IMG/VR virus record: IMGVR_UViG_3300019890_000003
Location: 13,682 to 77,681 of that record
DNA length: 64,000 bases
From: a virus
Direction: 5' to 3' (one strand)
Shown here: piece after piece, positions 1-58,828 of the stretch
Layout of the letters: each line of letters opens with the position of its first letter
Numbering within the stretch: the first letter of the stretch is position 1
Translations under genes and position numbers: made by a program
Notes under the pieces: model-generated
Told to the model about the DNA's origin: nothing
The model's input: the letters and a program-made list of their open reading frames with translations, nothing else
The model's database searches: none

Positions 1-3000
1 CAGCAATCCTAATAACCGCATCTTTATCGGCGCAAAGAACAATGATGTTGGTTTCGGTGCGGGTGCATTCAGTGTTGTCTATATATGATAGCGGATCGAA
101 TCTTACGGTTATAAACGGATTGAAGAATGGAACGCCGGTTACTGGAATAGGATAAAACGGAACGCGCTGCGGAACAATGAACCTGTCCCGATAGCGGCTA
201 TCGGCGAACGGCGCTCCGAGTAGAGATTGAACCTTCCCTTGGATTACCGTCGGTAGGAATGAGCTTGCCGGGTATTTTGTTGTGTCGCGATAGCTTTTAT
301 CGGCGAACGGAACGCCGAGCGCCCGCTGAACCGGCGGCTGAATAAGCCGTGGCAGGAACGGGTGCGGCGGATATTCAGAGGTATCCCGATATTTCCCGTC
401 GCTGAACGGAACACCGAGTTGGGACTGAACCTTGCCCTGGATTACGCCAGGGAGGAACGCATTCTTTAGACCGGCGGCAGTATCGAAATAGCCCTTGACG
501 TCGAACTTGACAACCGGGAATGGATTGAAGAACGGCGTCTGAACCACCGCTGGCGCAGGGAATAGACCCTGGTTGAGCGGATAGACGTAGCTGTCGCGGT
601 ACGCTTTGGCATTGAACAGTACGACATTCTCAATGAGATTTAAGAACGTCGAGGCCGGCGTTTGAATTATGGATGGAAGAAACGCATTATCGCCGACGTT
701 GGTCGGATCGCGAAATGCGAGTGCGTTAAACGGTGCGCCAAGCAGCGACTGGACCAACGGGAACGTTGTTGGTGGCGGATAGAGTTCGGTGTTCCTCGGA
801 TAGACGTATGTGTCCCGATACGTAGCCGAGTTAAACGGGGCGGCGTTCTCGACGAAATTCAGGAACGTCGATGTTGGCGTCTGAATGATATTCGGAAGGA
901 ATGCGTTGTCGCCGAAGTTAGCTAGATCACGGTATCCTAGCGCGTTAAACGGCGCCCCTAGATAAGCCTGAACCTTTCCTTGGATTGTAAACGGAAGGAA
1001 TGCGTTGGAGTCGAAACCCCTATCACGGTAGCTCTGCGTGCTGAAGACTGCCGGAAGAGCTTGCCCAAAGAACGGCGAGAAGACAACAGCCTGATATAAA
1101 TTATCGTTTACAGAGGTGGCGGACGAATCTCTGTAGCTTAAGGTATTGAATGGTATGGGCGGCGGTGGCGGTCCAATTAACGCGCCAACTGGCTCGCCAA
1201 TCGACGGTAAGAATGTAGCGTAAAGACTTCTGGATTCGTTTGCAACAAACGTCGGCGATAGATACGGATTTGGGAGCGCGAGATCGCCTCCCGCGTCATT
1301 GTAGACAGTTTCTGAGCTTGGATCAGCCCGAACAGTATCCGAATTAACTACGCTGAGGTACGCAAGCCAAACAACCTGCCCCGCGACAAACAACGGATTC
1401 GCGGTCGTGTTGATTGTATTCCAGGCGTCGTGGCTAGGGCCTCCTGTTGCCTGCGCTAGAAGACTGCCCGGCTTACCGGCTACGTCGGAATAAACAGCCA
1501 GGGATAGGGTTGAATTGCGGCCGGTTGAACAATTAACCGATATAGACTCGATTGTCCCAGAATTCGGCACGATATACGGGCCGTTCGCTACCGTAACCCC
1601 GACCAGGTTGTAAAGGGAACCTATTGAGGTAGTAGTATACCCTAGCTCAAACCCACGCGGCAAAAACGCGTTGAAGGTCTGATAGCCTAGCGGGTCGCGA
1701 TAGCTGACGTTATTGAACGGAACGGACGCAATCGGATTGAAGAACGGCGAGACAGTTGCTACCGGGAATAGACTCGGGTTCTCGCCACCGAGCGAATAAT
1801 CCCGATAATTTAGGCCGTTGAACGAAACTCCTAATAAGGACTGTACCGGATTCTGAATTGTGGCCGGCAAGAACGCATTAGCGTCAAACAGGCTATCTCG
1901 GTAGTTCAGCCCATTGAACGGCGCGCCAAGTTGAGATTGAATCTCTCCTTGAATAATGCTCGGCAGAAATGCGTTCGGGCTCGGATCAAAATTAGCCGGA
2001 TCACGATAGTTCAGGCCGCTAAACGGAAGAGGCGGCAGCGGGCTGAAGAATGGCGAACCTACTGGAGCCGGGAAGAGGCTTGGATTCCTAGTCCAAGTCG
2101 AAGAATCTCGATAGCTAAGGCTGTTGAACGGAACTCCCAGCAACGATTGCGCTGGGTTCTGGATCGTCTGCGGCAGGAACGCATTGGGACTTGGATCGAA
2201 ATTAGCTGGGTCGCGATAGCTCAGGCTGTTGAACGGCGCGCCGAGCAACGGCAGAATCGGGAATTGCAGTACCCGAGGAAGAAACGCGCTCCCATCAAAG
2301 AAACTGTCGCGGTAGTTAAGCCCGTTGAATGGTCCGCCGGTAAGGGACTGAATCTCTCCCTGAATGATGGACGGAAGAAATGCGTTGAATGTCTCATAAC
2401 CAAGCGTGTCGAGATACGTCTTGGCGTCGAACTTGGAAACATTCTCAATGAAATTGAGGAATGTCTCGACCGGCGTTTGTATGACGCTCGGCAGAAACGC
2501 GTTTTCGCCGAAATTGCTCGGATCGGCGTATTTCTGCGAACTAAACTGTGCCGCCGTCGCCGGATTGAAAAACGGCGTCGCAGCCGGCGGTGTGCTATAA
2601 AGGCTTAGATTTACCGGCGGTATGAAATAGTCGCGATAGCCAGCGCCGCCAGTGTAGCCAGCGACGTTTAAATCGGCGCTTTCTACGGCCGTCCCGCCAC
2701 CGGCTGGCACATACGTGATAACGATAAGGCCTGCGCCGCCGACGCCACCGGTGCCTGCTGTCGATGATGACCAACCACCGCCACCGCCGCCACCGCCATA
2801 AAGGCCGCCAGCTCCGCCATTACCAGCAGCGCTAGTGTCTGGGCTATTGCGCCCGCCACCGCCGCCACCGCCTCCACCAGAGCCTTTGGTGCCGTCTCCG
2901 ACGTCTAGGCCATTGCCACCCGCACCGCCGTTGCCAGCGACCGCTGCGCCATTGGTCGAGCCACCACCACCGCCACCAGATCCATTCGATCCTGTGCCGC

Positions 3001-3643
3001 CATTTACACCGGCACCGCCTCCTGAGCCGCCCGCCGTCGAGTCAACCGCCGCGCCACCTGGAGCCCCAGTGAACTGATCTACAAGCGGCGTGCCGCCTGT
3101 AGAGCCGCCGCCATTACCGCCGCCGCCGCCGCCGCCATTCTGGCTGAAGCCTGTACTCGCCCCTGAACTGCCGCCAGCCTTCCCAGCGCCGCCGGGGCCG
3201 CCAGCACCACCACCTGCCGATGCGCCGTTAACAGTGTTAGCTTCCGCGCCGCCGTTACCGCCATTGACGGCCGTGCCGATCGAGCCGGATGCAAGGCCGC
3301 CTGGGCCGAATGTCGCCCCAGTAGCGCCGCCGCCCGCTTTCGCGCCGCAGCTCGAGCCGCCGAGAGTCGTGCCGTTAAACCAAGTGTCGCCGCCAGTGGT
3401 GCCGATAGCGCCGCCGACGCCGACCGTATAAGTGGCCGTGCCACCAGGCGTTAGGTTGACATTGGCGATCTTGGAATATGCGCCACCACCGCCGCCAGCA
3501 CCTGTGGTATTGGTGCCTACAACACCGCTAGCCCCGCCGCCTCCAGCACCGACCGTCTCAACGCTATTGTTTAAAATATTGAAATCGGTCGGAACATTGA
3601 ATGTCGCGAGCGAGCCCGACGTCAGATAAATGACTACCGCCAT
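1..3643 (-). CDS. Large repeat protein (>1214 aa, 3' end outside window): Gly-rich domain, ~21 F-x4-YRD repeats, inserted beta-sandwich domain; putative fibre scaffold
   Basis: Hand translation from ATG 3643 (MAVVIYLTSGSLATFNVP...). Frame stays open to position 2 (...IIVLCADKDAVIRIA), which is why the ORF track omits it. Gly-rich part ends GGVGGAGLIVITY near 2710. Confidence 0.9.
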   Translation of the reverse strand, partial: MAVVIYLTSGSLATFNVPTDFNILNNSVETVGAGGGGASGVVGTNTTGAGGGGGAYSKIANVNLTPGGTATYTVGVGGAIGTTGGDTWFNGTTLGGSSCGAKAGGGATGATFGPGGLASGSIGTAVNGGNGGAEANTVNGASAGGGAGGPGGAGKAGGSSGASTGFSQNGGGGGGGNGGGSTGGTPLVDQFTGAPGGAAVDSTAGGSGGGAGVNGGTGSNGSGGGGGGSTNGAAVAGNGGAGGNGLDVGDGTKGSGGGGGGGGGRNSPDTSAAGNGGAGGLYGGGGGGGGWSSSTAGTGGVGGAGLIVITYVPAGGGTAVESADLNVAGYTGGAGYRDYFIPPVNLSLYSTPPAATPFFNPATAAQFSSQKYADPSNFGENAFLPSVIQTPVETFLNFIENVSKFDAKTYLDTLGYETFNAFLPSIIQGEIQSLTGGPFNGLNYRDSFFDGSAFLPRVLQFPILPLLGAPFNSLSYRDPANFDPSPNAFLPQTIQNPAQSLLGVPFNSLSYRDSSTWTRNPSLFPAPVGSPFFSPLPPLPFSGLNYRDPANFDPSPNAFLPSIIQGEIQSQLGAPFNGLNYRDSLFDANAFLPATIQNPVQSLLGVSFNGLNYRDYSLGGENPSLFPVATVSPFFNPIASVPFNNVSYRDPLGYQTFNAFLPRGFELGYTTTSIGSLYNLVGVTVANGPYIVPNSGTIESISVNCSTGRNSTLSLAVYSDVAGKPGSLLAQATGGPSHDAWNTINTTANPLFVAGQVVWLAYLSVVNSDTVRADPSSETVYNDAGGDLALPNPYLSPTFVANESRSLYATFLPSIGEPVGALIGPPPPPIPFNTLSYRDSSATSVNDNLYQAVVFSPFFGQALPAVFSTQSYRDRGFDSNAFLPFTIQGKVQAYLGAPFNALGYRDLANFGDNAFLPNIIQTPTSTFLNFVENAAPFNSATYRDTYVYPRNTELYPPPTTFPLVQSLLGAPFNALAFRDPTNVGDNAFLPSIIQTPASTFLNLIENVVLFNAKAYRDSYVYPLNQGLFPAPAVVQTPFFNPFPVVKFDVKGYFDTAAGLKNAFLPGVIQGKVQSQLGVPFSDGKYRDTSEYPPHPFLPRLIQPPVQRALGVPFADKSYRDTTKYPASSFLPTVIQGKVQSLLGAPFADSRYRDRFIVPQRVPFYPIPVTGVPFFNPFITVRFDPLSYIDNTECTRTETNIIVLCADKDAVIRIA
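80..2650 (-). repeat. Coding tandem repeat of ~32-36 aa, consensus PFNxLxYRDxxxxxxNAFLPxxIQxxVQSxLGA
   Basis: 10 units at ~2650-1660 and 11 units at ~1160-80, separated by a non-repeat domain. Conserved at protein level, degenerate at DNA level. Confidence 0.9.
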
Positions 3644-3691
3644 GGCGACCCTAATGGTATGTCGCCTTAGGCGTCGTATGTTAGCCGCTGG

Positions 3692-4204
3692 CTATGGTAG
3701 CACCTTCAATATCCACGTATTGATAAACGGCGTAATTCCAGGAGGAGGAGATAGGATCGCATTGTTGTAATCGGCACTGTCACGGTAACTCATACTGTTA
3801 AACGGCGCCCCGAGTTGCGACTGCACTTTCCCCTGAATTAGCTTCGGCAGGAACGCGCTACCGTCAAAGAAGCTATCACGATACGTGAACGCATTGAATG
3901 GCGCCGGAATAAACGGATTAGAAAATGGCGCCAGCGTGGCGCCAAGGTATTGAATTACGCCGATCGCATCCGCGAGTTCCATCGCGGTTGTGGGTAGAGT
4001 CGGCAAAAGGCCGTTGTCGCTCCAGCTATTTCTATCCTGGTAGCTTAAACTCTGAAACGGAATTATGGGGGTTAGACCAAAAAACGGTTTCGCAGCAGCG
4101 GCCGGAGGATATAAGCTTTTGTTTAGCGGGAGATCCGCAGGATCGAGATAATTATGGCCATCAAACTTCGGCGGTCTGTTAAGAGATGTGCCGTATCGCG
4201 CCAT
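3692..4204 (-). CDS. Short YRD-repeat protein (4 units)
   Basis: FDGHNYLD, FQSLSYQD, FNAFTYRDSFFDGSAFLPKLIQGKVQSQLGAP, FNSMSYRD: same repeat as 1..3643. Confidence 0.85.
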   Translation of the reverse strand: MARYGTSLNRPPKFDGHNYLDPADLPLNKSLYPPAAAAKPFFGLTPIIPFQSLSYQDRNSWSDNGLLPTLPTTAMELADAIGVIQYLGATLAPFSNPFIPAPFNAFTYRDSFFDGSAFLPKLIQGKVQSQLGAPFNSMSYRDSADYNNAILSPPPGITPFINTWILKVLP

Positions 4205-4228: not shown

Positions 4229-5044
4229 CTACAGCCATGCGTTTACGAATGGGTCCACAGCAGCCGGTGGAAGAAACGTCTGCAGATCGAACGCAGGTGA
4301 TGCGAAGATGCCGTACGGATCAGACTCCAGAAGCACAGCGTCTTGTTGGGTAAGCGCATGATCCCAAAAATAGATCGCCATCATCGCCGTGTCTGGCATG
4401 GCCTGGATCTCTAATGCGGCGGTTGATTGCGTACCGGCACCAGCAGAAACCCCCGTCGACGTCAGATATGATGCAGCATCCACCCAGACATTGCTGGTCA
4501 GTGGATTAATCTTAAGGGAGGCCAAAACACCATGAATTCCATTGCTTACTGCTGCGCCAGGACCGACAGTGGAGAACGCACCATAATAAAGGCAATGTAG
4601 GTTGCTGTTAGCTGAAGACGTGAGCGGCCCGAAGCCGATGGGGCTAGCAGTGTTCGCGGCGTCACGCACGAACATCATGCCGTTGGCGCTGGCAGTCGAG
4701 ACGCCTATCTGGCGATAACGTATATAGAACGATATTTGTGGGGTCCACGCCACGATGCGCGGTGAGAGCGCGCCAGCCGCCGTGCATAAGCCATACCCGG
4801 TGTTAACCGCAGTACCAATTACCGGCCCTTCCTGAGTGACAGCCGGTATCCCTGTGCAGGCGGCACCAGCATTTTGAACATCTACATAGAGAAAAGGCTT
4901 ATTGATGCCGGTATAATCCACCCAGGATATCCCAGGAAGATATGCACCAATCAGTCCATCCGCCAGCGGGTGAGTCCGGTTAATCGAAAGACTCGCCGGA
5001 CGCGGAACCTGTTTCAGGCGTTGTCGCAACAGCTTGATAGGCAT
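4229..5044 (-). CDS. LamG/concanavalin-A-like domain protein
   Basis: HPLADGLIGAYL start, VWVDA strand and IYFWDHALTQQDAVLLESDPY end resemble phage LamG-like proteins. No signal peptide. Confidence 0.6.
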   Translation of the reverse strand: MPIKLLRQRLKQVPRPASLSINRTHPLADGLIGAYLPGISWVDYTGINKPFLYVDVQNAGAACTGIPAVTQEGPVIGTAVNTGYGLCTAAGALSPRIVAWTPQISFYIRYRQIGVSTASANGMMFVRDAANTASPIGFGPLTSSANSNLHCLYYGAFSTVGPGAAVSNGIHGVLASLKINPLTSNVWVDAASYLTSTGVSAGAGTQSTAALEIQAMPDTAMMAIYFWDHALTQQDAVLLESDPYGIFASPAFDLQTFLPPAAVDPFVNAWL

Positions 5045-7304: not shown

Positions 7305-7820
7305 TCAGATCGTCTCGTAAACGATATGTCCACCGATAAGGCCTGCTGTACTGCCGGTGAACCCTGATAGAGATGCGTCTCCATTCGGCCCGGTAACGCC
7401 GACAAGTTTGAAGTACTCACCTGGATCCATTGCCGTCCAGCGCACGATGCCACCAAACGCATTGAAGGTAAGATTCAACCTGCCAAGCGTCACGACGTTA
7501 GACCTGGTTGGCTGCGTCGTTGCCGCAATATATCCTACAGCCGGCAACGCTAGTGCAGCGGCTGCTGGATCCATAGGACCATTCGATGACGTACCCGCAG
7601 CCAGAGCGGTAGGCGTGGCGCCAGCGGTCGAATCGCGCGACAAAACCATATACTGCGGCGCAGACGAAGTGGCTTGGCCGCCCATGTACACTTCGCTGAT
7701 GTCGTTACGCTGAGTGGCAGAGCCGCCACCAAGAGCCATATATGTACCGGTCGTTAGAACCGCGTTGTCGGCTGTCGCGGCAGTCGTGAAGCTGTTGGTG
7801 GAAAACGAATACTTGGTCAT
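7305..7820 (-). CDS. Small beta-rich putative structural subunit
   Basis: 171 aa, Ala/Thr/Gly-rich, no Cys, AAGGGG RBS-like sequence upstream. Confidence 0.65.
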   Translation of the reverse strand: MTKYSFSTNSFTTAATADNAVLTTGTYMALGGGSATQRNDISEVYMGGQATSSAPQYMVLSRDSTAGATPTALAAGTSSNGPMDPAAAALALPAVGYIAATTQPTRSNVVTLGRLNLTFNAFGGIVRWTAMDPGEYFKLVGVTGPNGDASLSGFTGSTAGLIGGHIVYETI

Positions 7821-7826
7821 AGCCCC

Positions 7827-8192
7827 TTATCCTTTTAGAAGCGGTGAGACAGACGTTAAGTTCGGGAGCGGGTTATATCCCGCCTCTTTTCTGAACGCCT
7901 GCTCTTGAAGGTGATCAAGCGTCTTAACAAAGGGAGTACATTCAGCGTGGCATGAAGGCTTGTCGCAGATGAACCGATCGCACTTCCGGCAATGGCCACG
8001 GGCTCGAACCCTGTACGGATTCATAATCACGACATCGTCGCAATGAGCGCAGGTTTGTGTAGGCGCCTCTAACACCTTGCCCTCTGGCACCGCCATGGTT
8101 GGATCGAGGCCAACGGCGAATAGCTCATCAGCGGTTATCCCTGGACTCGCGCGGTGATCGACGAGCAGGTGTCCTTCTTTTCTGCGCATCAT
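7827..8192 (-). CDS. Cys-rich putative Zn-binding protein
   Basis: CAHC...CRKCDRFICDKPSCHAEC. Confidence 0.65.
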   Translation of the reverse strand: MMRRKEGHLLVDHRASPGITADELFAVGLDPTMAVPEGKVLEAPTQTCAHCDDVVIMNPYRVRARGHCRKCDRFICDKPSCHAECTPFVKTLDHLQEQAFRKEAGYNPLPNLTSVSPLLKG

Positions 8193-8349: not shown

Positions 8350-9759
8350 TCAGTGCCACACACCGACCCAATCGACGAATAGGTCGTACTTCCCAGATGG
8401 AGGCGGGAGCGAAACCCACCCACCGCCGGATGCAAGCTCCAGCATCGGCGCCCATAGCGGCTTCACTGCGGAATTAGGGGAGCTGTATTGCGGAAATGAA
8501 TCGCATTTCAGCTGCACCTCGTCGAAATATTCACAGACAGTGCCGGTTGCGCTGCCAGAATTCGAAATCTTCATCCCGACAGTGTGCCAATCCCAGGTGA
8601 GATCCGCGCCCGACCCAAGAGGATACCCGGCATACCCGCCATTGGGGCTAGCTGGAAAGAACGCTGGCGCATATGCGTGCGTAAATGCCTGGTGATAATG
8701 GATGTCATTCCCGAACATTTCGGTCATGTCCATCTCCATGCCGCCATGAGTCTGATCGCTCAACTCAAGCATCCAGAAGGATGGCCACGTACCGCCTGAA
8801 CAGGTATTATCGCCTGGGACGTTACAGAAGGAGTTCGGGATCAGAATACGGGCGTCATAGTATCCGTCTGTTAGGCCAGGCGCAGAGGCTGATTTATCAG
8901 GATATCCTGTGCCGAGGATCCCACACCGTTGCTTACGGCCAAAGCCGTAGGGATCGACATAAGCAGGATCGAAAGTGTTGCGGATACGCAACCCGCCCTG
9001 TGGTAGAATGGTAAATGGATTGTACCCATTGACACTGTCGGTGTGCTCATTGGCGCAATCGCCGAAGTCTTGTCCGGTGAAGAGCCCTTCATACCATTTG
9101 AAACCATCAGATGCCGTTGGGGCAGTGCAGCTAGGCCACGTACCGGTGCCTGGCTTGCATGGTGTTGAGTTGAGCGTCGTGAAATGATCGCTGAAGGCGA
9201 GGGTCATTCCTGACGCTGGCGCAGGGGTTGGGATGGCAGGACGTGTGCCAGCTACAAAGAGCTTATACCTGCCCTGCAAATGGACTGTAGGACTACCGCC
9301 AGGCACGACATCGTAGGCATTGAATTCCACAGTGAGCGGGCCTGCTGGCTCGGCGGATAGGTCGAGCAGACCGGTGAACATGCTGCCTGAGCCTTGTGTA
9401 AGCCTCACGGCCATCGCACCATGCGTCCATACTTCGACATTGAGCGAGCCCAGCGCCTTGATAACGATCTGTTGCGGGCTGGCCGATACCGTCGCATTCG
9501 CGTCGGTGATGCCGAGATCCAACAAGGCTGGTGACGAAATCTGATTAGACGTCACGACATTGGGTGAGCAGGGTAAAATGATCCCCATCTGGTTGGTGGT
9601 GGCCGATGACGAGGAGCATGTTGGGACCGGCTGACAAAGCGGCACGGTGATCTGCGTATAGCCGCTAGAGCACTCGGCGTGCGCCTCAGGGAACGCGAAG
9701 AAATGAACATACCCCAGCGCTATGAGGAGGAATAAAACCGCGATGAAGTATTTCAGCAT
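8350..9759 (-). CDS. Signal-peptide GH16-like glycoside hydrolase
   Basis: Start reassigned to ATG 9759 (MLKYFIAVLFLL...AHA|ECSSGYT), overlapping the upstream stop. WPSFWML...EMDMTE matches the GH16 ExDxxE motif. Confidence 0.75.
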   Translation of the reverse strand: MLKYFIAVLFLLIALGYVHFFAFPEAHAECSSGYTQITVPLCQPVPTCSSSSATTNQMGIILPCSPNVVTSNQISSPALLDLGITDANATVSASPQQIVIKALGSLNVEVWTHGAMAVRLTQGSGSMFTGLLDLSAEPAGPLTVEFNAYDVVPGGSPTVHLQGRYKLFVAGTRPAIPTPAPASGMTLAFSDHFTTLNSTPCKPGTGTWPSCTAPTASDGFKWYEGLFTGQDFGDCANEHTDSVNGYNPFTILPQGGLRIRNTFDPAYVDPYGFGRKQRCGILGTGYPDKSASAPGLTDGYYDARILIPNSFCNVPGDNTCSGGTWPSFWMLELSDQTHGGMEMDMTEMFGNDIHYHQAFTHAYAPAFFPASPNGGYAGYPLGSGADLTWDWHTVGMKISNSGSATGTVCEYFDEVQLKCDSFPQYSSPNSAVKPLWAPMLELASGGGWVSLPPPSGKYDLFVDWVGVWH

Positions 9760-11408
9760 GTGTGCGGGCTCGATGGCGCCGTGCCAGTTTGGGGAATTAC
9801 GAAGCCAGGCGGTCCCCACGTCCGATCGAAGTCCGTGAAGCTCACTGGCGCGCTGAAGACTGGCGACGTCGGATCGATGACATACGACCAGCATGTCAAC
9901 TTCGGGTCTCCCGTGGTTGGGCTGGCATCGGTATAATTGCCGCCTGAGCTAAGCGTACCGCTCCCATAATTGTGATAGAAATTCGCCGTGATCGTCGGCG
10001 CGGTAGGCGGAGACCCACTCAGAATATTGTAGCCGCCACCGGCGGCGCCGCTGATGACGATGTTGTGCTCGACCTGATTGCCGTCCATGTTCGAATTAAC
10101 GGGGCATGTCGTGGTTTGAAACGCCACAATGCTCTGTCCGAGAGTCGATAGATCGATCAGGTTGTTGTTCACCCGAACGTTACGGCCGCCATGGAAGAGC
10201 ATGGCGGTATTCGAACCATTGCGCCCAGTGATAACATTCCCGGTCGCGAGGATGTCCGTGGCGCAGTCATCCGCATACATGGCCGAGCCGAAGCCCGAAC
10301 CGAGGGTGGCAAACGTGTTTGCGTCGCGGATGTAATTGTTGGTCCATTGGGCGCCGGTGCCGGTTTGCCTGGTGGCGTCGACTTGGTAGATCCCGCTACA
10401 ATCCGCCTGCGCGGTGCAGGTGTTCCAAATCGCCATGTGGTCGATGTGGGGATTGGTGAGGACGCTACCGCTGCCAGGGTTGGTTATGTTTATGCCCCAT
10501 GAATTGGTATCATGGATAACGCCATGCGAAATCGTCATGCCGACAGGACCGTAGAAGGATATTCCGCCTGGCGCTGAGAAGTTGGAGTTCGTGGCGTACT
10601 CGTTAAAGATGATGAAATCTTTGAGGATGACGTTCGTATCGCCGCCCGTCGAATGGAAGCCGCTGTGCTGGAAATCGTGCAGCGACAGGCCGTCGATCGT
10701 CACATTTGTGGTGTGATCGAAGTTGAAGATGAAATGCAGGCCGTTGCCGAAGGCCGTCGAGCCGCCCGTAAGGTCGGCGCTGTCATAGCCGTCCGGAGGA
10801 TAATAGGACCACGTCTCGCCACTATCGGCCGACGTGAGGGCTATCCCACAGGTAATGCCGGTGCCGCCGTCGCAATTCTGGACTGGCGTTGGGAAGCTGT
10901 AGCTGCCGGCGCGGATGTATGTGGTTAGGATCGTGCCGCTCGCGCGCATGGCCGCTTGGGCTTTGCTAAGCGTGGCGAATGGCGCAGCTAGAGTCCCAGC
11001 ATTGCTATCGCTGCCATTAGTGGCAACGTAGAACGCAGATGCCAAAGCTGGATTCACGGTCAAGGCAAGGGACGCCGTGCCTGTCCCGCCAGCGTTCGTC
11101 GCGCTCTCGGTCGTATTCGTGGTGCCGGTGACCGTGGGCGTGCCGGAAATAAGGCCGGTGCTGGTGTTGACTGACATGCCAACGGGCAGGGGCGATGCGC
11201 CCCAGCTCGTAGGGGTATTCGTGGCCGTGATCTGGAAACTGCACGAGGTGTTAACCGTGCAGCTTCCTGATGCCGGGCTCGTAATCACCGGCGCCGGCGT
11301 GCTGTTTAATTGGCACAACGGCACTGTGACCGCAGTGTATCCAGCCGCGCACTCGGCAAAGGCGGGGCCGGCTAGCGCAACAAGGAAGGCTGCGAGAATA
11401 CCTCTCAT
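9753..11408 (-). CDS. Signal-peptide protein: He_PIG-type Ig domain plus right-handed beta-helix (pectin-lyase-like fold)
   Basis: Start ATG 11408 (ATGA overlap). TGLISGTPT Ig motif; FYVATNGSDSNAGTLAAPFATLSKA; Asn-rich beta-helix coils. Confidence 0.8.
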   Translation of the reverse strand: MRGILAAFLVALAGPAFAECAAGYTAVTVPLCQLNSTPAPVITSPASGSCTVNTSCSFQITATNTPTSWGASPLPVGMSVNTSTGLISGTPTVTGTTNTTESATNAGGTGTASLALTVNPALASAFYVATNGSDSNAGTLAAPFATLSKAQAAMRASGTILTTYIRAGSYSFPTPVQNCDGGTGITCGIALTSADSGETWSYYPPDGYDSADLTGGSTAFGNGLHFIFNFDHTTNVTIDGLSLHDFQHSGFHSTGGDTNVILKDFIIFNEYATNSNFSAPGGISFYGPVGMTISHGVIHDTNSWGINITNPGSGSVLTNPHIDHMAIWNTCTAQADCSGIYQVDATRQTGTGAQWTNNYIRDANTFATLGSGFGSAMYADDCATDILATGNVITGRNGSNTAMLFHGGRNVRVNNNLIDLSTLGQSIVAFQTTTCPVNSNMDGNQVEHNIVISGAAGGGYNILSGSPPTAPTITANFYHNYGSGTLSSGGNYTDASPTTGDPKLTCWSYVIDPTSPVFSAPVSFTDFDRTWGPPGFVIPQTGTAPSSPHTC

Positions 11409-12682
11409 CTGAATGTCACGCCAATGCAAGTCATGGCGCCAGAATTACCAGCCGTGAACGTTTGCGCTACGGGAGCTGACGCAGGCGCGTAATCTCCCCA
11501 TCTATAAAAATCAGCGATCCCGCTTCCGGCTGTTACAACATGCGACAGCGTTGCCGGTGACAATGCCGTTGGAGAGCCGAGATCGTTCATCCCGACATAG
11601 AATGCCCACTCTCCTGACTGCCATGTTTCGCTTATTGCCGGCACGACGCATGTCGTTCCATTTGACGTGTTTGCCTTACTCGATACTGCCTTAACCGCAA
11701 TCGACCCAGACGACGTTTTGTAATTCCTGATATTCCCGTCAATTGCCGCATAGGCCAGACCGGAACCAGGCATCGTTACCGTGTAAGATGCAGGCTCAGA
11801 ACTTGCAGTACGAGAAAAGAGTGCTGTCGTGAAGTTCCCATAAACTGGATCAAGTGCATTAGCTAGGCGGGCAACCACCGTCCACCCTGCCGGGGTGTTT
11901 GGCGTCTCGACAGGATCGGTTAAGGCCGTCTGCGAAGTGACGACCATAAACATTAAATCGCCATTGGCGACGCCAGCAGGCGTGCTCAATACGACGGACT
12001 GCGAAGCCGAAGCATTATATCCGCCGTCAGCGCCGAAGGAAATTGTGCCAGAGCCGGCCGCCGCGATGGTCAACGCCAGGTTTTGAGTTCCCGTCCCCGC
12101 CCCATTGGTTGCACTAAGGCCGACGGTGCTCGAACTAGCTGCCGTTGGCGTACCGGAGATAGTACCGGTCGAAGTGTTAATCCCGAGAGGAGCCGGAAGA
12201 TTGCTTGCGCCATAGCTGGTCGGCATATTGGTTGCGGTAATATGATATGTAAATCCAGTGCCCACCGTGCCAGACGCCGTGGTGGGGCTGTTGATAACCG
12301 GTGGCGAGCCAGCGGCGGCGATAGTCAGGGCCAGCGTCTCATTGCCGGTGCCCGTCCCATTCGTCGCGCCTAGCGTGACGTTGCCGCTAAAGGGGGCAGT
12401 GGGAGTGCCTGATATGAGACCGGTCCCCGTATTGACCCCAAGGGGTGATGGAAGCCCGGTAGCACTGTAGCTAGTGGGCGAATTGGTTGCGGTAATCTGG
12501 TAGCTGAAGGCCATCCCGGCGGTGCCGCTAGCGGTTGACGGACTAGTGACGACGGGCGCGCCAGTGGTGTTTTGCTGGCAGGCAAAGACGTTACTCAGCT
12601 GCGTGTAACCCGTAGCGCACTGGGCATTTGCTCCCACCGTAAGCGCGATAAGTGCCGTGAAAGCAATGGCTAAGGACTTCAT
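11405..12682 (-). CDS. Signal-peptide protein with two He_PIG-type Ig domains and a C-terminal beta-sandwich
   Basis: Two PVxxSPxTASGT...TGxISGTPT units. LSTPAGVANGDLM...TPAGWT...SEPASYT domain. Leader ends ANA. Confidence 0.8.
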   Translation of the reverse strand: MKSLAIAFTALIALTVGANAQCATGYTQLSNVFACQQNTTGAPVVTSPSTASGTAGMAFSYQITATNSPTSYSATGLPSPLGVNTGTGLISGTPTAPFSGNVTLGATNGTGTGNETLALTIAAAGSPPVINSPTTASGTVGTGFTYHITATNMPTSYGASNLPAPLGINTSTGTISGTPTAASSSTVGLSATNGAGTGTQNLALTIAAAGSGTISFGADGGYNASASQSVVLSTPAGVANGDLMFMVVTSQTALTDPVETPNTPAGWTVVARLANALDPVYGNFTTALFSRTASSEPASYTVTMPGSGLAYAAIDGNIRNYKTSSGSIAVKAVSSKANTSNGTTCVVPAISETWQSGEWAFYVGMNDLGSPTALSPATLSHVVTAGSGIADFYRWGDYAPASAPVAQTFTAGNSGAMTCIGVTFR

Positions 12683-41109: not shown

Positions 41110-43629
41110 TCATAGTTCCGCCGCCGTAGTTGAAACATTTGTAATACTACAAGTTCCTCCTGCACCGCCTGCGGATAATTGAACATCAAACCAAAGAGCT
41201 GTTGATAGGGTTCTTCCAGTTGTGACTCCAGAAAGAGAAAAAACGCTTATCTGATCTGTGGCGAACGTCGTCTGTTCTGACGCTCCAAGAACCGTTCCAG
41301 TAGTGGCCGCTCCGAGTGTTGGGGCGGTACCAGTTCCGAACCGAAGAGCCACAAAACATCTGTCGTTCGTAAGTGTGTTCGCTACAGAACCGTTTACAAT
41401 AAATAAGACCGTGCCGGTTTTTGTCGGAGTGATTGCGCCCGCAAGGCCCTCCATCACTGCTGTTACACTAGAATTCCCACTAGCTGGATTTGATGGGGCG
41501 GCCGTACCACCAGAGGTGGCCAAACTGCATGTCGAGCCAAGGGTACAGGTGACGCCGTTAACTGTCGTGCTAGGATTCGCCAGCTTGGTGTTCGTGACGG
41601 CAGCAGAACCTATCGTTGTCGCGCACGAGCCAGCCGATGTTGTGACATCTCCAGTCAACGCTGGTGTCTGCCCGCAAGCAAGTGAACTCGCAATATTGGA
41701 AAACGCTAATGGCGATCCGCCGATTTGATACGTGCCAGAAGCTAGATTGAGACCGCCGCCAGTGGAAAGCGTAAGCAGCGCGCCATAACCGCCGCCATTA
41801 ACCTGGCCGCTCCAAACCAGATTGCCGCTTGGACTAATTGCCCCTTGAACAGGTTGCAGTTCTTCGATCACGTCGACGGTCTGGCTACCGGCGGTCGCGT
41901 TGGTCTTCCAACCTTGGCCCGTGAAGTGCACGCGCGGCGACCATTTCTGAGCACCAACCGTCGCCGCCGTAATATCCGTCAAGAGCAAACCATCGGTGCT
42001 AGTGGCAGCGATCGCTTGCGTGCCAGTGATAGCACCAGAGGTCCCTAGGCTCGTTAAAGTGCCCAAACTCGTCAGGGACGATGCCGTGACGCCGGCCGCC
42101 AGAGTGGCACCTGTCAACGTGCCTGCCGGAGCTATAACCGCGTTCGAGCCTGCCGAGACAATCAACCCCTTCCCGTTAACATTGAAGTTAGGGATAGAAG
42201 TCGATGAGCCGAAGGAACCCACATTCGTGTTAACCGTGGCCAACGTTGTGGCGCAACCAACGGACGTGACATCACCTGTTAATGTACCGCACGCTCCAAT
42301 GGCAGCGGTGGTCATAGCGGTAACAAGACCCTTGCCGTTTACCGTTATAACTGGGACAAGCGAGGAGCTTCCGAAGGTGCCTGTATTGGCGTTGACCGTG
42401 TTCAACGTGGTAACAAAACTATTCGCCGGCGTCGTGAGATCCCCGGACATCGCCGCCGTTTGTAAATTAGTTCCTGAGAATGCGAGCGTCGCCCCGAGCG
42501 CCACCGCTCCCGCATTGCCGATCGAACCGGAAGAATTCCCTACCAGGCTGCTTGCAGCAACCGTTTGAAACTTGCCATAGGTTACGGCGTTCGCCGCGAT
42601 CGTCGTGGCGCATGAGCCAGCGCTCGACGTGACGTCACCCGTATTGGCTGGCTCACTAGCGCAAGCGACATTGAATCCAGATGCGGTGGTGCCGCTCGCC
42701 AACGTGCCGGTGCCGGTAATGTTAGCCTGGGTCGCCGCTGGGATTGTCGATGAAATCGACGGGACTCCGCCAGCGCCCGTAATGAGCACGCCGTTGTTCG
42801 CCGTCGCAAGCCCGACGACGGTTGTCCCGGCCGCGTTGTACCAAGCGAGCTGATTGATCAATGCAGACGTTACGGTGCCGCCACCGCCGCCAACCGTGCA
42901 AGCGCCACCGGCATCGATGAAATTGCCGCTTGCATCGATCGAGACGCAGTGACCGCTGGTAAGGGTGCCTGTCGCTGTAGCAAAGGTGGTCGTGCTACCA
43001 GAGCGCGTGCCAAAAGCGACATTCGAAGTTCCCGCCCCAATCAATGGGGCATTAGCCGTCAGAGTCGCGAGACCGGTGCCGCCATTAGCAACGGAAACCT
43101 GCCCTGTCAGATCGGTGGCCGGGATCGCCGGAAGATCGGCATTGACGAGCGCGCGGAATGTGGGCGTCCCTGTCGAGCCACTCGGCGCGGCGAACACCTT
43201 GTTTGTTGTCTGTGTTGCGAGCGATACGGCAAACGTGCCAGCGCCGGTAATAGGGGATCCGCCGACGGCCATAATAGACGGGACCGTCATAGCAACGGAT
43301 GTTACAGTGCCGCCGCCTGTAAGGGATATGCACCCAAGAACTCCGCCATTGTTGTATAAGCCAAATCCGTTCGTGCAAGCGCCGGTGATCGGGCTCCCAA
43401 CCGTCAGGCCAACGGCTGATCCATTTACGAAGAAGCCGCCCGAAACATTTATGGTGCCGATACCCTTTTGGCCGCCAGTCGGCGCGCCCATAGTAAGGCC
43501 GCCATTGTTGTAAAAAAGAGATAGCGACGGCCCGTAATTCCAAGGGTCCGGCGGCGGACCAGGGCCGGTCTGCGCATAGACAGCGCTAGAGAGCGCCGCG
43601 AATCCTAGGATTGCGAGGACACGTTTCAA
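41110..43629 (-). CDS. Long tail-fibre-like protein with signal peptide
   Basis: GGTVTSV, VANGGTG, LTGDVT and NGKGL fibre motifs; leader MKRVLAILGFAALSSAVYA; 14 Cys. Confidence 0.8.
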   Translation of the reverse strand: MKRVLAILGFAALSSAVYAQTGPGPPPDPWNYGPSLSLFYNNGGLTMGAPTGGQKGIGTINVSGGFFVNGSAVGLTVGSPITGACTNGFGLYNNGGVLGCISLTGGGTVTSVAMTVPSIMAVGGSPITGAGTFAVSLATQTTNKVFAAPSGSTGTPTFRALVNADLPAIPATDLTGQVSVANGGTGLATLTANAPLIGAGTSNVAFGTRSGSTTTFATATGTLTSGHCVSIDASGNFIDAGGACTVGGGGGTVTSALINQLAWYNAAGTTVVGLATANNGVLITGAGGVPSISSTIPAATQANITGTGTLASGTTASGFNVACASEPANTGDVTSSAGSCATTIAANAVTYGKFQTVAASSLVGNSSGSIGNAGAVALGATLAFSGTNLQTAAMSGDLTTPANSFVTTLNTVNANTGTFGSSSLVPVITVNGKGLVTAMTTAAIGACGTLTGDVTSVGCATTLATVNTNVGSFGSSTSIPNFNVNGKGLIVSAGSNAVIAPAGTLTGATLAAGVTASSLTSLGTLTSLGTSGAITGTQAIAATSTDGLLLTDITAATVGAQKWSPRVHFTGQGWKTNATAGSQTVDVIEELQPVQGAISPSGNLVWSGQVNGGGYGALLTLSTGGGLNLASGTYQIGGSPLAFSNIASSLACGQTPALTGDVTTSAGSCATTIGSAAVTNTKLANPSTTVNGVTCTLGSTCSLATSGGTAAPSNPASGNSSVTAVMEGLAGAITPTKTGTVLFIVNGSVANTLTNDRCFVALRFGTGTAPTLGAATTGTVLGASEQTTFATDQISVFSLSGVTTGRTLSTALWFDVQLSAGGAGGTCSITNVSTTAAEL

Positions 43630-43644
43630 CGGCCTTCTCCAGGC

Positions 43645-43959
43645 TTAATAAACGACGACAGTGAATTTGTGATTGCTCGTGGCGGCGTTCACGAGCGTCG
43701 CGGTGACTTGGCCTGGAATTAGGTTCCAACTCTGCCCCGGTTGGAGCGCAATGGCCGTTCCATTCGCATTCAAGCCTGGAGACACGCCAGTCGGGTCTAC
43801 GATAAGCGGCTCTGCCGTGCCGATACCTTGATCAGAGGCCGTGAGCGGATTCACGATATATCCGCCATTATAGCCAGCCGGCAAGGCGAAGGCGGCAGTT
43901 ACCGCCGTCCCGCCGGTTGTGATAAAACTGTGGGCGCCTGCGACTGGTGTTACGGTCAT
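43645..43959 (-). CDS. Small structural protein, paralog of the N-terminal domain of 45764..46873
   Basis: GGYIVNPLTASDQGI...VNAATSNHKFT. Confidence 0.75.
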   Translation of the reverse strand: MTVTPVAGAHSFITTGGTAVTAAFALPAGYNGGYIVNPLTASDQGIGTAEPLIVDPTGVSPGLNANGTAIALQPGQSWNLIPGQVTATLVNAATSNHKFTVVVY

Positions 43960-43968
43960 GTTCAGGTC

Positions 43969-45135
43969 CTATTGGTATTGACAACCGGATCCTGATGTAC
44001 CGGCGACGCTTCCTGGATAGTAGTTCAAGTTACCGCCGGATAGTGTTTCGATAACGCCGTTCAGGACGCAATCGAATTTCCCCCCGGTCACATTTCCAGC
44101 GCCGGTTATCGACGGAAGTATTAGACCTTCAAAACCGGCACCTCGAGCGACTACAAAATATTGCACGGTTATTGGAGTCGTTATTACCATCGACGTAGTA
44201 CCGGCGATAAATCCACCGTAATTTGCATCAAACACCGCACCGCATCCAGGATTGCATGCCTGACCAGTACTGGATCCAGAGACAGAAATTGTCCCAGAAC
44301 CTACATTAACACTGGATTGCTGCGCGAAAACCCCATCCCCGTAGCATGTTCCAAAAATGATATTGGTAATCGTCAATGCTGTTTGTTGCTGTGCAAAAAT
44401 ACATGCGCCGAGACTGTCTGCGGGTGTCGAATCGGTCTGTATTAGGGTAAATCCGTTAAACGATTGGCCTGTGACTCCTGTAGCCGTAATGGTAGATGTC
44501 GTGCTTGACGAAATTACCACAAGGGATGGAGTGCTGACGTTTCCTATCCAATTTACAAACCCATTCCCGCCAACCGGAAGTAGAACGACAGGAGCGTATG
44601 TGCCGGTGCCGACATTGATGGTGATGGTGAATCCATTAGCATTGTATTTGCTGATGAACGTTGCGGCATGTTGCAAGGTTAGCCAACAGTTAGGTGACAC
44701 CCCCGTGTTTGAATCGTTTCCGCTTGTCGCAACACAGAATGTCGTGGGGGCAAAAAGTATCGGTTGAGGTGAGATAGTGCTATCGAGCACATACTCTGTG
44801 CCGTCATACACCAATACCGTCAACTGACCGGCAACCATCTCTTGGCCGCCAAGAACAGTCAGACCGCTCTGAGTTGCCTTTTTAATCGCGGTAGCTGCCG
44901 TACCACCAACGGCCGCAGTTGCCGCCCCCGTGTTCGTCGCCGATGGGAGGAACCGGATAGGGACGCCAACCAAATCGGCGATAGAGGAAACGTTTGGAAT
45001 GCCGATTACGATAGCGTTCGCCGTGCCGGTGGTTGTCGCCTGCCACGTTTGCTGCGATATGAATTGCGCGCTCGCCGGTATCGACGCCGCGAAGACAAGC
45101 GCGAGGCAAACTAAAATATTCCTTATGGTCCGCAT
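43969..45135 (-). CDS. Tail-fibre/tailspike-like protein (beta-helix) with signal peptide
   Basis: TGTANAI...TNTGAAT fibre N-domain; VATSGNDSNTG...LTLQHA; leader ends ASA. Confidence 0.75.
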   Translation of the reverse strand: MRTIRNILVCLALVFAASIPASAQFISQQTWQATTTGTANAIVIGIPNVSSIADLVGVPIRFLPSATNTGAATAAVGGTAATAIKKATQSGLTVLGGQEMVAGQLTVLVYDGTEYVLDSTISPQPILFAPTTFCVATSGNDSNTGVSPNCWLTLQHAATFISKYNANGFTITINVGTGTYAPVVLLPVGGNGFVNWIGNVSTPSLVVISSSTTSTITATGVTGQSFNGFTLIQTDSTPADSLGACIFAQQQTALTITNIIFGTCYGDGVFAQQSSVNVGSGTISVSGSSTGQACNPGCGAVFDANYGGFIAGTTSMVITTPITVQYFVVARGAGFEGLILPSITGAGNVTGGKFDCVLNGVIETLSGGNLNYYPGSVAGTSGSGCQYQ

Positions 45136-45767
45136 CAGTAAACGCCTCCGACGTCCCAGAAATTACTACCGTAATAGGTGAATGACGCCTTCATGTGGTT
45201 GACATTCAAGACAATGAACGATTGATTTGAAATCGTCATCCCAGCCGGTGCATTGATCGTAACCGGGAAGCCCTGAAAATTTCCGATTAGATCGGAATAT
45301 GTGATCATTTGGCCGATCGACGCGCCGCCAGGCAATGTCGTCGACGAGTTTGCTATGGATGTTGTTCGCTGCAGTCCTATCGCGCCATCGGTTGAGTTCG
45401 TTGTGAACACGCCGCTAAGCGTGATAATGCGCGGCGTGGCCGGGCTGGCGACAGATTGAAGAAAGGACGTCATCTGGCCGGCGGTGAGTTGGTGGATGAA
45501 GAAATCTCCAGCCAACCAATTTAGGGGCGTCGTGCCCTCTTGGCCACGTAGCATCGTAACGGTGTCCGTTGCGATGGCGGTTACCTGAACAATTTCATTG
45601 AGAGTTTGCGTTGCGGCGTCGATAAGAGTGGCTGCGAAAACCTGTCCGGTACTTGGGACCGGGAACTCAATCCCCGATCCAGGCGCTAAATTCGCGGTGA
45701 CAGCTACGTTTGTTATTGCTCCAGCAAGAGTCGAGTTTGCGTTGTTTTTGAATATAAAGGTGGTCAT
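45135..45767 (-). CDS. Baseplate-proximal tail fibre / adaptor
   Basis: NNANSTLA...EIVQVTA...RGQEGTT. Confidence 0.75.
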   Translation of the reverse strand: MTTFIFKNNANSTLAGAITNVAVTANLAPGSGIEFPVPSTGQVFAATLIDAATQTLNEIVQVTAIATDTVTMLRGQEGTTPLNWLAGDFFIHQLTAGQMTSFLQSVASPATPRIITLSGVFTTNSTDGAIGLQRTTSIANSSTTLPGGASIGQMITYSDLIGNFQGFPVTINAPAGMTISNQSFIVLNVNHMKASFTYYGSNFWDVGGVY

Positions 45768-46873
45768 GCGAACTCGCCTTTTGCATAGATGTGAACTATA
45801 ACGGGAGAGAATTGAAATGGCATCTCAAGCGCACCTGTATCTACTGCCTCTTTAAAGATAGTTGATAGTGGCGGAACCACTTCGCTAACGAATGTTGATG
45901 TCACTGAATTGTATGGCCCAAAGTGATCGTTGTATGCGGCGCCTGGGATTGGGTTATAAACGTGCGATTTTGTGATTGTACGGAAGCCGGAGATAATAGT
46001 TATATTCAACTGCTGATTCACGCCAAACGTGACACTAATCGAATATGTCGGGCCGTCAAAGTCCGCTCCGTTCTCTCCGAATAAGAACCTTATGATTCTG
46101 GCCTTTAGCCACAATGGCGAAAAATACTTCCCATCACCCTTAAAGAAGTGCCACGTGATGATGCGCTTGAAAATATCATCTGTAGTCGTGGCGACATTGC
46201 TAGAGCCAATAAACTGAAACCCGTTGTAGGGGTTCTTCTGATTAAAATATTGTGTGTTGTACGGGCCGACAGAGTGAAAAGTGCCGGATGACAGAACTGG
46301 GCGCGCGAGCCCATAGATTCCAGCAGCGACCCAATCGAGGAGGGCGCCAAAGATTTGCGGTTGGGTGTAAATCGGAAGATTGATGGAATTGAACCAATCC
46401 ACGAACTCTTGTGCATACGTGTTGTATGCGAGCACAAAAGCCTGGAGGTCGTCATCATCCGTGTATTGCTGATACAGGTAGCTTGGGAGGGCGGTTGTCA
46501 GACCGGTCGGACCTGACGGCGGGAATGATCCAACAAGAGGAGTAAAGAACGGAGGCGCCGGTTGCCACAGAATGGAAGTGAACTGATGACCACTCGTCGC
46601 CGCATTGACATAAATGCTGTTCGTACTGTTCGGCGTGGCAAAATAGAATTGGCCTGGGAGAAGTTCAAACGTCGTTTGGTTGGCGATAAGCCCAGGCGGC
46701 CCAACCTCGCTTACATATATGGCCTCCGGGATTGCGATGCCCTGATCGCTTGCATTTAGCGGGTTCCAGATAACGCCGCCGGACAACAAGGCATGGATTG
46801 CGACAACCGGCGTGCCGCCAGTTATAATCGCGCTTGCGTTCCCGTGGAACAGATTGACGGGCGCAGACGTCAT
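45764..46873 (-). CDS. Baseplate wedge protein with extra N-terminal domain
   Basis: YLYQQYTDDDDLQAF...LLDWVAAGIYG...DDIFKRIITW; follows baseplate J. Confidence 0.75.
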   Translation of the reverse strand: MTSAPVNLFHGNASAIITGGTPVVAIHALLSGGVIWNPLNASDQGIAIPEAIYVSEVGPPGLIANQTTFELLPGQFYFATPNSTNSIYVNAATSGHQFTSILWQPAPPFFTPLVGSFPPSGPTGLTTALPSYLYQQYTDDDDLQAFVLAYNTYAQEFVDWFNSINLPIYTQPQIFGALLDWVAAGIYGLARPVLSSGTFHSVGPYNTQYFNQKNPYNGFQFIGSSNVATTTDDIFKRIITWHFFKGDGKYFSPLWLKARIIRFLFGENGADFDGPTYSISVTFGVNQQLNITIISGFRTITKSHVYNPIPGAAYNDHFGPYNSVTSTFVSEVVPPLSTIFKEAVDTGALEMPFQFSPVIVHIYAKGEFA

Positions 46874-50422: not shown

Positions 50423-50919
50423 GGCGACACTTCGAACTGCTGAGTCGCTTCACGGAACACGAACGTCGACGTCGTAAAATATCCACCGGCGATGTTGATA
50501 TCGTGGCCGATATTCCCATTAACGGTTGCATCACTACCAGGGTCGATCGCGAGCGGGAATGTCAAAGTCGACGGAGCCGTCACGAACATGCTCCATATCC
50601 CATTATACGCCGATGGCGAGACACCTACGACTGTGAGCTGCGCTGTAACGCCAAGCGGTATCCCATGCGGTACGGCGGTGGTCACCGTCACGAGATTCTG
50701 AACGCCGCTCCAAGTAAGAGCCGCAGTTTGGATAGCAGTTGGAGAACCGATAATTGGAAGGTAGAAAATGAGATTGCCAGTCTGATCAAAAAGGTTGATG
50801 TACCACCTTTGACCAGACAATCCCCACGTAATCTTGGCTTGATATTGGGTGCCATCCAAAATTGGCGAGAATGAAAACGGCACAGTCGCCGATGGTGAAA
50901 ATATCGTAAACGTCGTCAT
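50419..50919 (-). CDS. Small baseplate protein
   Basis: FSPILDGTQY...WGLSGQRWYINL; position. Confidence 0.7.
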   Translation of the reverse strand: MTTFTIFSPSATVPFSFSPILDGTQYQAKITWGLSGQRWYINLFDQTGNLIFYLPIIGSPTAIQTAALTWSGVQNLVTVTTAVPHGIPLGVTAQLTVVGVSPSAYNGIWSMFVTAPSTLTFPLAIDPGSDATVNGNIGHDINIAGGYFTTSTFVFREATQQFEVSP

Positions 50920-51644: not shown

Positions 51645-51659
51645 TTGCTACTATTTCCC

Positions 51660-51683
51660 TTGACACGCGAGGGCATTTGCCCT
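51660..51683 (+). promoter_or_regulatory. Moron promoter with operator having perfect inverted arms
   Basis: TTGACA at 51660; AGGGCATTTGCCCT at 51670-51683. Confidence 0.7.
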
Positions 51684-51711
51684 ACAAGGGCAGTAACAAG
51701 AGGAGCCAGAT

Positions 51712-57416: not shown

Positions 57417-57430
57417 TTTCTATAGCCTCT

Positions 57431-58810: not shown

Positions 58811-58828
58811 TGGCGCGTCCATCCGTGC

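Follow-up and report, generated by a model that had tools for sequence, protein, structure and literature searches.

The question raised by this locus is what a phage might do with a very long protein that is built for the most part from one short, repeated sequence unit. The stretch of DNA analysed here (the window) covers 64,000 nucleotides of the viral record IMGVR_UViG_3300019890_000003 and corresponds to positions 13682-77681 of contig C1 (C1:13682-77681), a single contig of 77,681 bp representing the genome of a temperate myovirus from soil. At the left edge of the window lies the gene encoding the 1290-residue repeat protein P0003, which we read as a long modular adhesin of the phage particle, with a fibre-like function and a non-globular stalk; we hold this reading to be quite possible, though short of probable. 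In the following, the repeat, the domains that accompany it and the genes that surround it are described, and the alternative readings are weighed where the relevant evidence is given. The coordinates of all the features are listed in Table 1.

The repeat and its distribution

An earlier note on this DNA had described an open reading frame (ORF) of more than 1214 residues running off the edge of the window and embedding about 21 F-x4-YRD repeats of 32-36 aa in two variants. Within the window the ORF (2..3643, minus strand) does encode 1214 residues and is open to the edge; on the contig it is completed to 1290 aa (L001:13452-17324, minus strand), with the last 76 residues outside the window. 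The number of repeats also stands, since P0003 contains 21 copies of the loose motif F-x4-[YF]-x-[DE], spaced 32-38 aa save for two gaps of 189 and 91 aa, and cutting the protein at the motif ends yields 21 units. The strict motif, however, is found in only 15 of them (a six-frame translation of the whole genome contains 17 copies, the other two being in the small neighbouring protein P0002, and none elsewhere). Moreover, the period is regular, as had been claimed, but the range has to be extended to 32-38 aa, and the unit types are three rather than two: type A (NAFLPxxIQGxVQSxLGAPFNxLxYRD), type A', which carries IIQTPxxTFLNFxEN in the middle, and type B (NPxLYPxPxxxPFFNPxxxVPFxxxxYRD). The most constant positions fall in the last 12 residues before the unit end, where F and D never vary (20 of 20 units), while Y is retained in 19 units and R in 16. 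The repeat part is rich in proline (13.0%), phenylalanine (10.6%) and tyrosine (4.9%), poor in lysine plus glutamate (3.6% together) and completely devoid of cysteine and methionine.

At the DNA level, the repeat copies share an identity of just 60-85%, and Tandem Repeats Finder did not detect any array. The repeats are therefore old and have been maintained at the protein level, rather than representing a recent slippage artefact. About two thirds of the unit positions are conserved and, in copies so diverged in their DNA, this conservation and the tight unit length (32-38 aa) point to a structural periodic element under selection.

The earlier note had not recognised the repeat family, and indeed the repeat is without a counterpart among the Pfam, NCBIfam and PHROGs models, P0003, P0002 and the homologs P0005 and P0006 being without meaningful matches. 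When 33 four-unit segments of the array were compared with Pfam at E <= 10, 12 families were retrieved, all of them as scattered, chance-like matches. Among 5.8 billion clustered proteins, the only long relatives of P0003 are P0005, P0006 and P0007; an exhaustive HMMER search of 1.84 billion representative proteins adds a few short carriers of the repeat (P0008, P0009, P0012, P0015, P0021 and P0074). In all, the carriers amount to about a dozen proteins, every one of them from related soil phage contigs. A tblastn search with P0003 against 50,697 phage records gave no match, a scan of 185,579 species genomes retrieved no relative of P0003, the ESM Atlas contained no usable match for the array, and a literature search on the motif found nothing relevant. 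On the evidence of these sequence searches, the array repeat is an undescribed family, so far confined to one lineage of soil myoviruses. In one homolog, located on a 1.7-kb soil contig, the frame shifts once, between the array and the C-terminal module (L007:1190-1210); the cause is either a misassembly or a genuine frameshift.

Head, inserted domains and array

The N-terminal part of P0003 resembles the tip of a phage fibre. A phmmer comparison of P0003 with the tail fibre protein gp24 of cyanophage Pam3 (7yfw) gave an E value of 1.8e-4, a weak match between compositionally biased sequences, in which query residues 5-85 and 205-312 align to residues 83-158 and 162-275 of the gp24 chain, spanning the first strand through the closing G..G.I.I.Y strand. 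Glycine accounts for 37.9% of P0003 residues 1-330 and for 39% of gp24's glycine-rich domain (PMC9608196); in gp24, the TNF-like plus glycine-rich domains form the receptor-binding tip of the Pam3 fibre (PMC9608196). The head of P0003 thus exhibits both traits of this domain type, that is, a similarity (weak and biased) extending over the whole domain and a glycine content of about 40% with GGGGxGG sequences. In the homologs P0005, P0006 and P0007 an unrelated beta domain of ~190 aa is found in place of the head, whereas the array and the C-terminal module are kept. An exchanged N-terminal domain joined to a constant C-terminal end is the pattern to be expected if the N-terminal end meets a variable target and the C-terminal end a constant partner; in the adhesin that we propose, the TNF-like/glycine-rich head would be the distal, target-binding tip.

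The array carries two further domains. The earlier note had described a globular insert of ~150 aa that splits the array; such an insert is present, but it sits inside unit 10, flanked by two FLP motifs, and the peptide quoted for it actually reads LSLAVYSDVAGKPGSLLAQ. A second insert, a beta domain of ~55 aa whose strands are predicted at low confidence only, interrupts the last unit. Of the 116 matches to P0003 among the representative proteins, some 105 cover the unit-10 insert only. This insert matches residues 535-676 of P0020, which in turn matches PF13313 (DUF4082) at residues 555-620 (E 9.1e-10); P0003 itself has no direct Pfam match, so the link to PF13313 is a transitive one only. 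On the basis of the insert-only matches and of the overlap with PF13313 in P0020, the insert would therefore be a widespread DUF4082-like accessory domain, and its relatives adjoin fn3, He_PIG and beta-helix domains. To judge from sequence, both the inserted domains and the fused ones belong to types that occur in surface and secreted proteins, and in an adhesin the DUF4082-like and the small beta domains would act as further binding-type side knobs on the stalk.

The C-terminal module is conserved in all homologs and exists in two forms: a short one, with the ~55-aa beta domain only, in P0003 and P0005, and a long one, with a second small domain added, in P0006, P0007 and L005, the long-form homologs being encoded in L002, L003 and L005. 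In the genome under study, the second small domain plus a terminal unit, which in the long-form homologs are fused to the repeat protein, correspond to a separate ORF of 101 aa (Table 1). Both P0003 and the 101-aa ORF end in a full B unit followed by about ten residues. A -1 shift leading from P0003 into the 101-aa ORF was considered and rejected, given that it would not restore the long-form C-terminus. P0003, the 101-aa ORF and P0002 all terminate in ..ILP or ..VLP. According to our reading, the C-terminal module (beta domain plus terminal B-type unit) would be the end by which the protein attaches to the rest of the assembly.

As regards the array, AlphaFold2 run on residues 330-1290 (961 aa) with an eight-row alignment gave a pLDDT of 28.9. 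We then relied on an in-register alignment of the 33 four-unit segments, which overlap by half and whose register was checked; with this shallow, 33-row alignment, a model of four units reached a pLDDT of 54 and a pTM of 0.18, with no tertiary packing. Secondary structure is almost absent from it, being limited to one-turn helices at the N-x-L-x stretch that separates the anchor F from YRD. These models, obtained from shallow alignments, lend no support to a self-folding solenoid and are compatible with an extended chain; to this extent, the suggestion of the earlier note that the array is an extended chain finds support. In the adhesin, the 21 Pro/Phe-rich units would form a long non-globular stalk and not a compact solenoid.

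The same models may be read in another way. The array might be a lattice staple or decoration, that is, an extended chain that becomes ordered only along a periodic surface (the tail sheath or a different polymer, belonging to the particle or to the host), with one unit per lattice repeat, the globular domains facing outward and the small proteins anchored by their few units. This is in agreement with the missing tertiary fold (pTM 0.18 in spite of the in-register alignment) and with the fact that any number of units (1-25) might serve as an anchor, which fits proteins with 1, 2, 4 and 18-25 units. A further point in favour comes from a search of all PDB sequences with the unit profile A4, which matches the Toxoplasma protein SPM1 (7tnq, 7miz; E 2.2e-5), the PF...YR(D)xF...LP anchors and a period of ~32 aa being common to both. 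SPM1 is a filamentous, non-globular protein, whose six Mn-motif repeats of 32 residues are laid linearly along the microtubule protofilament (PMC8144581); the Mn-motif is defined by a short helix delimited by T/S at position 6 and F/Y at position 12 (PMC8144581). The match was not reproduced, however, with the full-length profile A3, no model of the Mn-motif/SAXO type is among the 12 Pfam families matched by the 33 segments, and the spacing from PF to YRD is one residue shorter in the phage unit than in SPM1, so that the alignment needs a one-residue shift. For these three reasons, the likeness to SPM1 is treated as an analogy and is almost certainly not a homology; it may also reflect the Pro/Phe-rich periodic composition. 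In addition, a chain lying along a contractile sheath would have to tolerate contraction, and the lattice partner is a putative one. We regard a lattice staple as unlikely, though not as negligible.

The variable locus and the small proteins bearing units or half units

In the related contigs the genes follow the order beta-helix protein, 121-aa Zn-ribbon-like gene, 171-aa gene, variable stretch, repeat protein, SLT-like gene and terminase, and these contigs, whose terminase large subunits (TerL) are 77-78% identical, are syntenic except between the 171-aa and the SLT-like genes, where they vary. In the present genome the variable stretch comprises genes for proteins of 196, 348, 158, 271 and 170 aa, while in L003 and L006 it comprises those for a beta-sandwich protein of ~190 aa, a 382-aa protein and a two-unit protein of ~130 aa. 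A variable locus among syntenic phages is usual for host-range determinants. We read P0003 as an adhesin because of this variability, together with the fibre-tip-type head, the exchange of the N-terminal domain at a constant C-terminal end and the binding-type extra domains.

The composition of the locus is also relevant to the idea that P0003 is not a part of the virion. The protein might be an accessory one, made late together with its glycanase-like neighbours and released at lysis, tethering host exopolysaccharide or a cell-wall polymer through the aromatic and polar residues of the units; it would then be a matrix tether and not a component of the particle. Its gene does share a block with those of an arabinofuranosidase-like protein (the 348-aa one; PF09206, 2.4e-45), of a beta-helix/He_PIG protein and of a protein with a weak GH16-like match, and this block lies just upstream of the terminase and the SLT-like gene, a position at which accessory genes are carried by lambdoid phages. 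The conserved F, Y, R, D, N and Q, moreover, would be typical of sugar-binding sites. Nevertheless, P0003, P0002 and the 271-aa protein are without a signal-peptide-like N-terminus, unlike the neighbouring enzymes, the head is fibre-tip-like, and the constant C-terminal end and the shared tags described below suggest an assembly with protein partners, all of which makes the accessory reading distinctly unlikely.

The earlier note had instead regarded the array as a chain of docking sites, which might template the polymerisation of the small beta proteins encoded nearby (those of 171, 196 and 158 aa), display enzymes in a cellulosome-like (scaffoldin-like) manner or work as a length ruler. Short conserved motifs at regular spacing, with no autonomous fold detected, and enzymes encoded in the vicinity would fit such roles, which we nonetheless consider very improbable. 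Indeed, the 171-aa protein has at least 419 relatives at ~55% identity, and its gene occurs together with the 121-aa one in 77 of the 80 viral loci fetched, whereas the repeat and the tag occur in none of the 80. The pair is thus a widespread and well-conserved viral cassette, found in both myovirus-like and podovirus-like contigs, followed by very variable genes, and in the podovirus-like ones it is close to portal, major head or tail tubular genes. The matches of the 171-aa protein in the ESM Atlas are viral clusters only, none of them named, and PDB sequence searches with the 171-, 196-, 158- and 271-aa neighbours returned nothing meaningful. The 196-, 158- and 348-aa genes, on the other hand, are absent from the related contigs that have the repeat protein. 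Because the 171-aa gene also occurs away from the repeat, and the 196- and 158-aa genes lack conservation, the expected co-occurrence with small beta proteins fails. As for the cellulosome-like display, the family-library scans gave no cohesin or dockerin match in P0003 or in any neighbour, and the enzymes bear a different, N-terminal Cys-loop motif and not the unit tag. A ruler is unlikely in view of the number of loose motif copies, which varies from 19 to 25 among the full-length homologs, and of the presence elsewhere of tape-measure-like genes (window 52259-56256); in addition, P0003 is encoded outside the tail module and has no PHROGs match.

The search for co-occurring genes was nevertheless fruitful in a different respect, since what specifically accompanies the large protein is limited to small proteins bearing units or a half-unit tag. 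Among them is the four-repeat partner that the earlier note had correctly singled out, P0002, with four loose motifs, two of them strict. Its orthologue P0012 also has four units, while P0015, P0074 and the 130-aa protein of L003 consist of an N-terminal domain of 60 aa followed by two to three units. All five terminate with a B unit of which only the first half is present (...PNPFVNxW(L/I)xxR). The same half-unit tail closes the 271-aa protein (...DPFVNAWL), which has no relative in the 5.8 billion proteins, the ~190-aa beta-sandwich proteins of L003 and L006 and three stand-alone DUF4082-like proteins (P0017, P0066 and P0078), whereas the majority of the remaining stand-alone DUF4082-like proteins have nothing beyond the domain and lack the tag. 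Altogether, the half-unit PFVNxW ends at least 10 small proteins with at least 4 unrelated N-terminal parts and, wherever the context is known, these proteins adjoin the large gene. The occurrence of the tag on at least 4 unrelated cargo domains implies that the unit or half unit behaves as a portable end-piece; if P0003 is an adhesin, its small neighbours would enter the same assembly by means of the units that they have in common with it, or of the half-unit tag at their C-terminus.

The genes are tightly packed along the whole run that starts with the 271-aa gene, includes the repeat gene and ends with the SLT-like one: the gaps range from -4 to 48 nt, which suggests one transcription unit; promoter and terminator scans remained within shuffled expectation. 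A fusion of the 271-aa gene, P0002 and P0003 by read-through or frameshift was rejected: the three share one frame, but at least two in-frame stops separate each pair.

Every array begins with the second half unit only (e.g., ...GGAGYRD, ...TANSFRD and ...FDGHNYLD), and in three phages two tags match two array starts, the order being tag-bearing cargo protein, short connector and long protein. Given that tags end in the first half and arrays start with the second half, in matched numbers, the tag may complete the open half unit. The tag is the most unusual feature of the system. On this basis it is conceivable, although we give it only a small chance, that the unit of 32-38 aa represents a new, non-globular assembly module employed in split form, the open half unit of each protein being completed by the tag of the preceding one. 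The three gene products would then be chained into one branched adhesin, in a manner for which we propose a likeness to donor-strand complementation in pili; alternatively, the same units may anchor the chain on a periodic virion lattice.

Concerning the genome as a whole, the 132 nt at one end of the contig (C1:1-132) recur, with one mismatch, at the other (77550-77681), and the genome is therefore complete, circular or terminally redundant, with a length of about 77.5 kb. TerL, portal and head-morphogenesis genes are located just downstream of the P0003 locus, while the tail sheath, baseplate hub and wedge, two tape-measure-like genes and a tail-fibre N-terminal domain are encoded at window 45135-58822; the set of sheath, baseplate and tape-measure-like genes identifies a myovirus. 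A sequencing-run search revealed DNA of this genome in soil metagenome runs from two studies, no RNA run being listed. All the relatives are metagenomic or viral contigs and none comes from an isolate genome; a TerL scan of the species genomes gave a sole match, partial and at 55%, in a metagenome-assembled genome (MAG) of Proteobacteria, which does not identify a host.

Some other features of the genome deserve mention. The two tape-measure-like genes (window 52259-56256, minus strand) encode adjacent paralogues of 709 and 622 aa, both matching phrog_7694; one also matches the baseplate hub/tail lysozyme family and the other the tape-measure family. An HNH/endonuclease VII gene (window 60634-61212, minus strand) is placed within the structural block, between head and tail genes. 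Three consecutive proteins of 514, 558 and 425 aa (window 8350-12682, minus strand) have a signal-peptide-like start followed by a common A(E/Q)C(A/S)xGYTx..CQ motif, with a weak GH16-like match, He_PIG plus beta-helix and He_PIG repeats as their respective cargo; in L003 the motif is found on proteins of 212 and 629 aa. The SLT-like gene, conserved immediately downstream of the repeat protein in each of the related contigs (here L001:12629-13141, minus strand), has a 170-aa product that combines a signal-peptide-like start with an SLT-like FGPFQL motif and a HHWHHWHHWHH C-terminal tail, and that has no Pfam match. Finally, a Gly/His-rich protein of 97 aa (GGGGHEHGGGGGWHGGH...) with a hydrophobic N-terminus is encoded at L001:10315-10608 (minus strand).

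Table 1. Location of the features discussed in the text (window coordinates unless a contig position is given).
Feature	Position	Strand	Remarks
P0003 gene, 1290-aa repeat protein	1..3643	-	runs 229 nt beyond the left edge, to contig 13452
TNF-like plus glycine-rich N-terminal domain, residues 1-315	2699..3643	-	phmmer vs 7yfw
Repeat units 1-9, residues 339-650	1694..2629	-	
Unit 10, residues 651-839	1127..1693	-	split by globular insert
DUF4082-like beta-sandwich inserted in unit 10, residues ~665-815 (~150 aa)	1199..1651	-	transitive PF13313 link
Repeat units 11-20, residues 840-1189	77..1126	-	
Start of conserved C-terminal module, residues 1190-1290, small beta domain in last unit	1..76	-	remainder outside the window
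P0002, 170 aa, four units, ending in half-unit tag TPFINTW...	3692..4204	-	orthologue P0012
271-aa orphan protein, last residues = half-unit tag (...FLPPAAVDPFVNAWL)	4229..5044	-	
101-aa ORF, one unit	L001:13150-13455	-	ATG overlaps P0003 stop as ATGA; outside the window
121-aa Zn-ribbon-like and 171-aa gene pair	7305..8192	-	conserved; upstream bound of the variable locus; context only
Baseplate and fibre genes together	41110-51644		
Baseplate genes	46873-50422		
Tape-measure-like genes	52259-56256	-	
Sheath gene	57431-58822		

The adhesin reading and the known systems

The sequence data show the domain map, the repeat and its rarity, the exchange of the N-terminal domain at a constant C-terminal end and the sharing of the tag; the association with the virion, the polarity, the stalk and the role of the tag are inferred. 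Several points weigh against P0003 being an adhesin of the particle. Its gene is some 40 kb away from those of the baseplate and fibres; some of the neighbours have signal-peptide-like N-termini and glycanase-like domains and are maybe not parts of the virion. The polarity would be opposite to that of ordinary tail fibres, the N-terminus varying and the C-terminus being conserved among the homologs, so that, also in view of the distance from the baseplate module, P0003 does not qualify as a canonical tail fibre. Lastly, the resemblance to gp24 is weak and involves compositionally biased sequences, and the predictions yielded neither a fold nor an oligomeric state.

At present, P0003 and its relatives represent a well-defined new protein family of one phage lineage, with an inferred function, and long phage adhesins as a kind are already known. 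If the adhesin reading holds true, the novelty would lie in the build, with a Pro/Phe-rich stalk, domains inserted within units, an N-terminal head and a half-unit tag; the tag/unit pair would also help in reading the host-range loci of uncultured soil phages and might provide a modular display connector.

Among the known systems, the array can be compared with the microtubule inner proteins SPM1/SAXO/MAP6, with which it shares the tandem arrangement of ~32-aa Pro/aromatic-rich units; SPM1 is non-globular, and the phage array likewise has no autonomous fold in prediction. SPM1, however, is eukaryotic and binds tubulin, and the match is weak and in one direction only. Should the array acquire order only when placed on a periodic lattice, the phage would possess its own equivalent of these extended microtubule lattice-binding proteins. 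The occurrence of unrelated cargo with a common terminal tag beside a long repeat protein recalls both the scaffoldin and dockerin-bearing enzymes of the cellulosome and the multi-tailspike phages with shared anchor domains; in comparison with the cellulosome, the phage tag is half of a repeat unit and not a complementary domain, and the neighbouring enzymes are untagged.

The head finds its closest parallel in Pam3 gp24 (7yfw/7ypx), to which the S16 gp38 adhesin and the TNF-like/glycine-rich domains of the ALK type are related. In gp24 this part is C-terminal, on a helical anchor of 82 residues, whereas in P0003 it is N-terminal and followed by about 975 further residues, and PDB sequence searches of the neighbours recognised no Tfa-like chaperone gene near P0003. 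Even so, residues 1-312 of P0003 align over the whole TNF-like/glycine-rich part, and both proteins have GGGGxGG-type runs and the terminal G..G.I.I.Y strand.

As far as the overall plan is concerned, the comparison is with the long tail fibre of T4 (gp34-gp37), in which a very long protein and short adjacent gene products with repeated motifs make up one elongated adhesin with globular nodules. No sequence similarity to these proteins was found, the P0003 gene is not beside the baseplate genes, the variable end is the N-terminal one and a P0003 trimer is putative; the likeness consists in a long protein accompanied by short adjacent gene products that share its repeated motifs.

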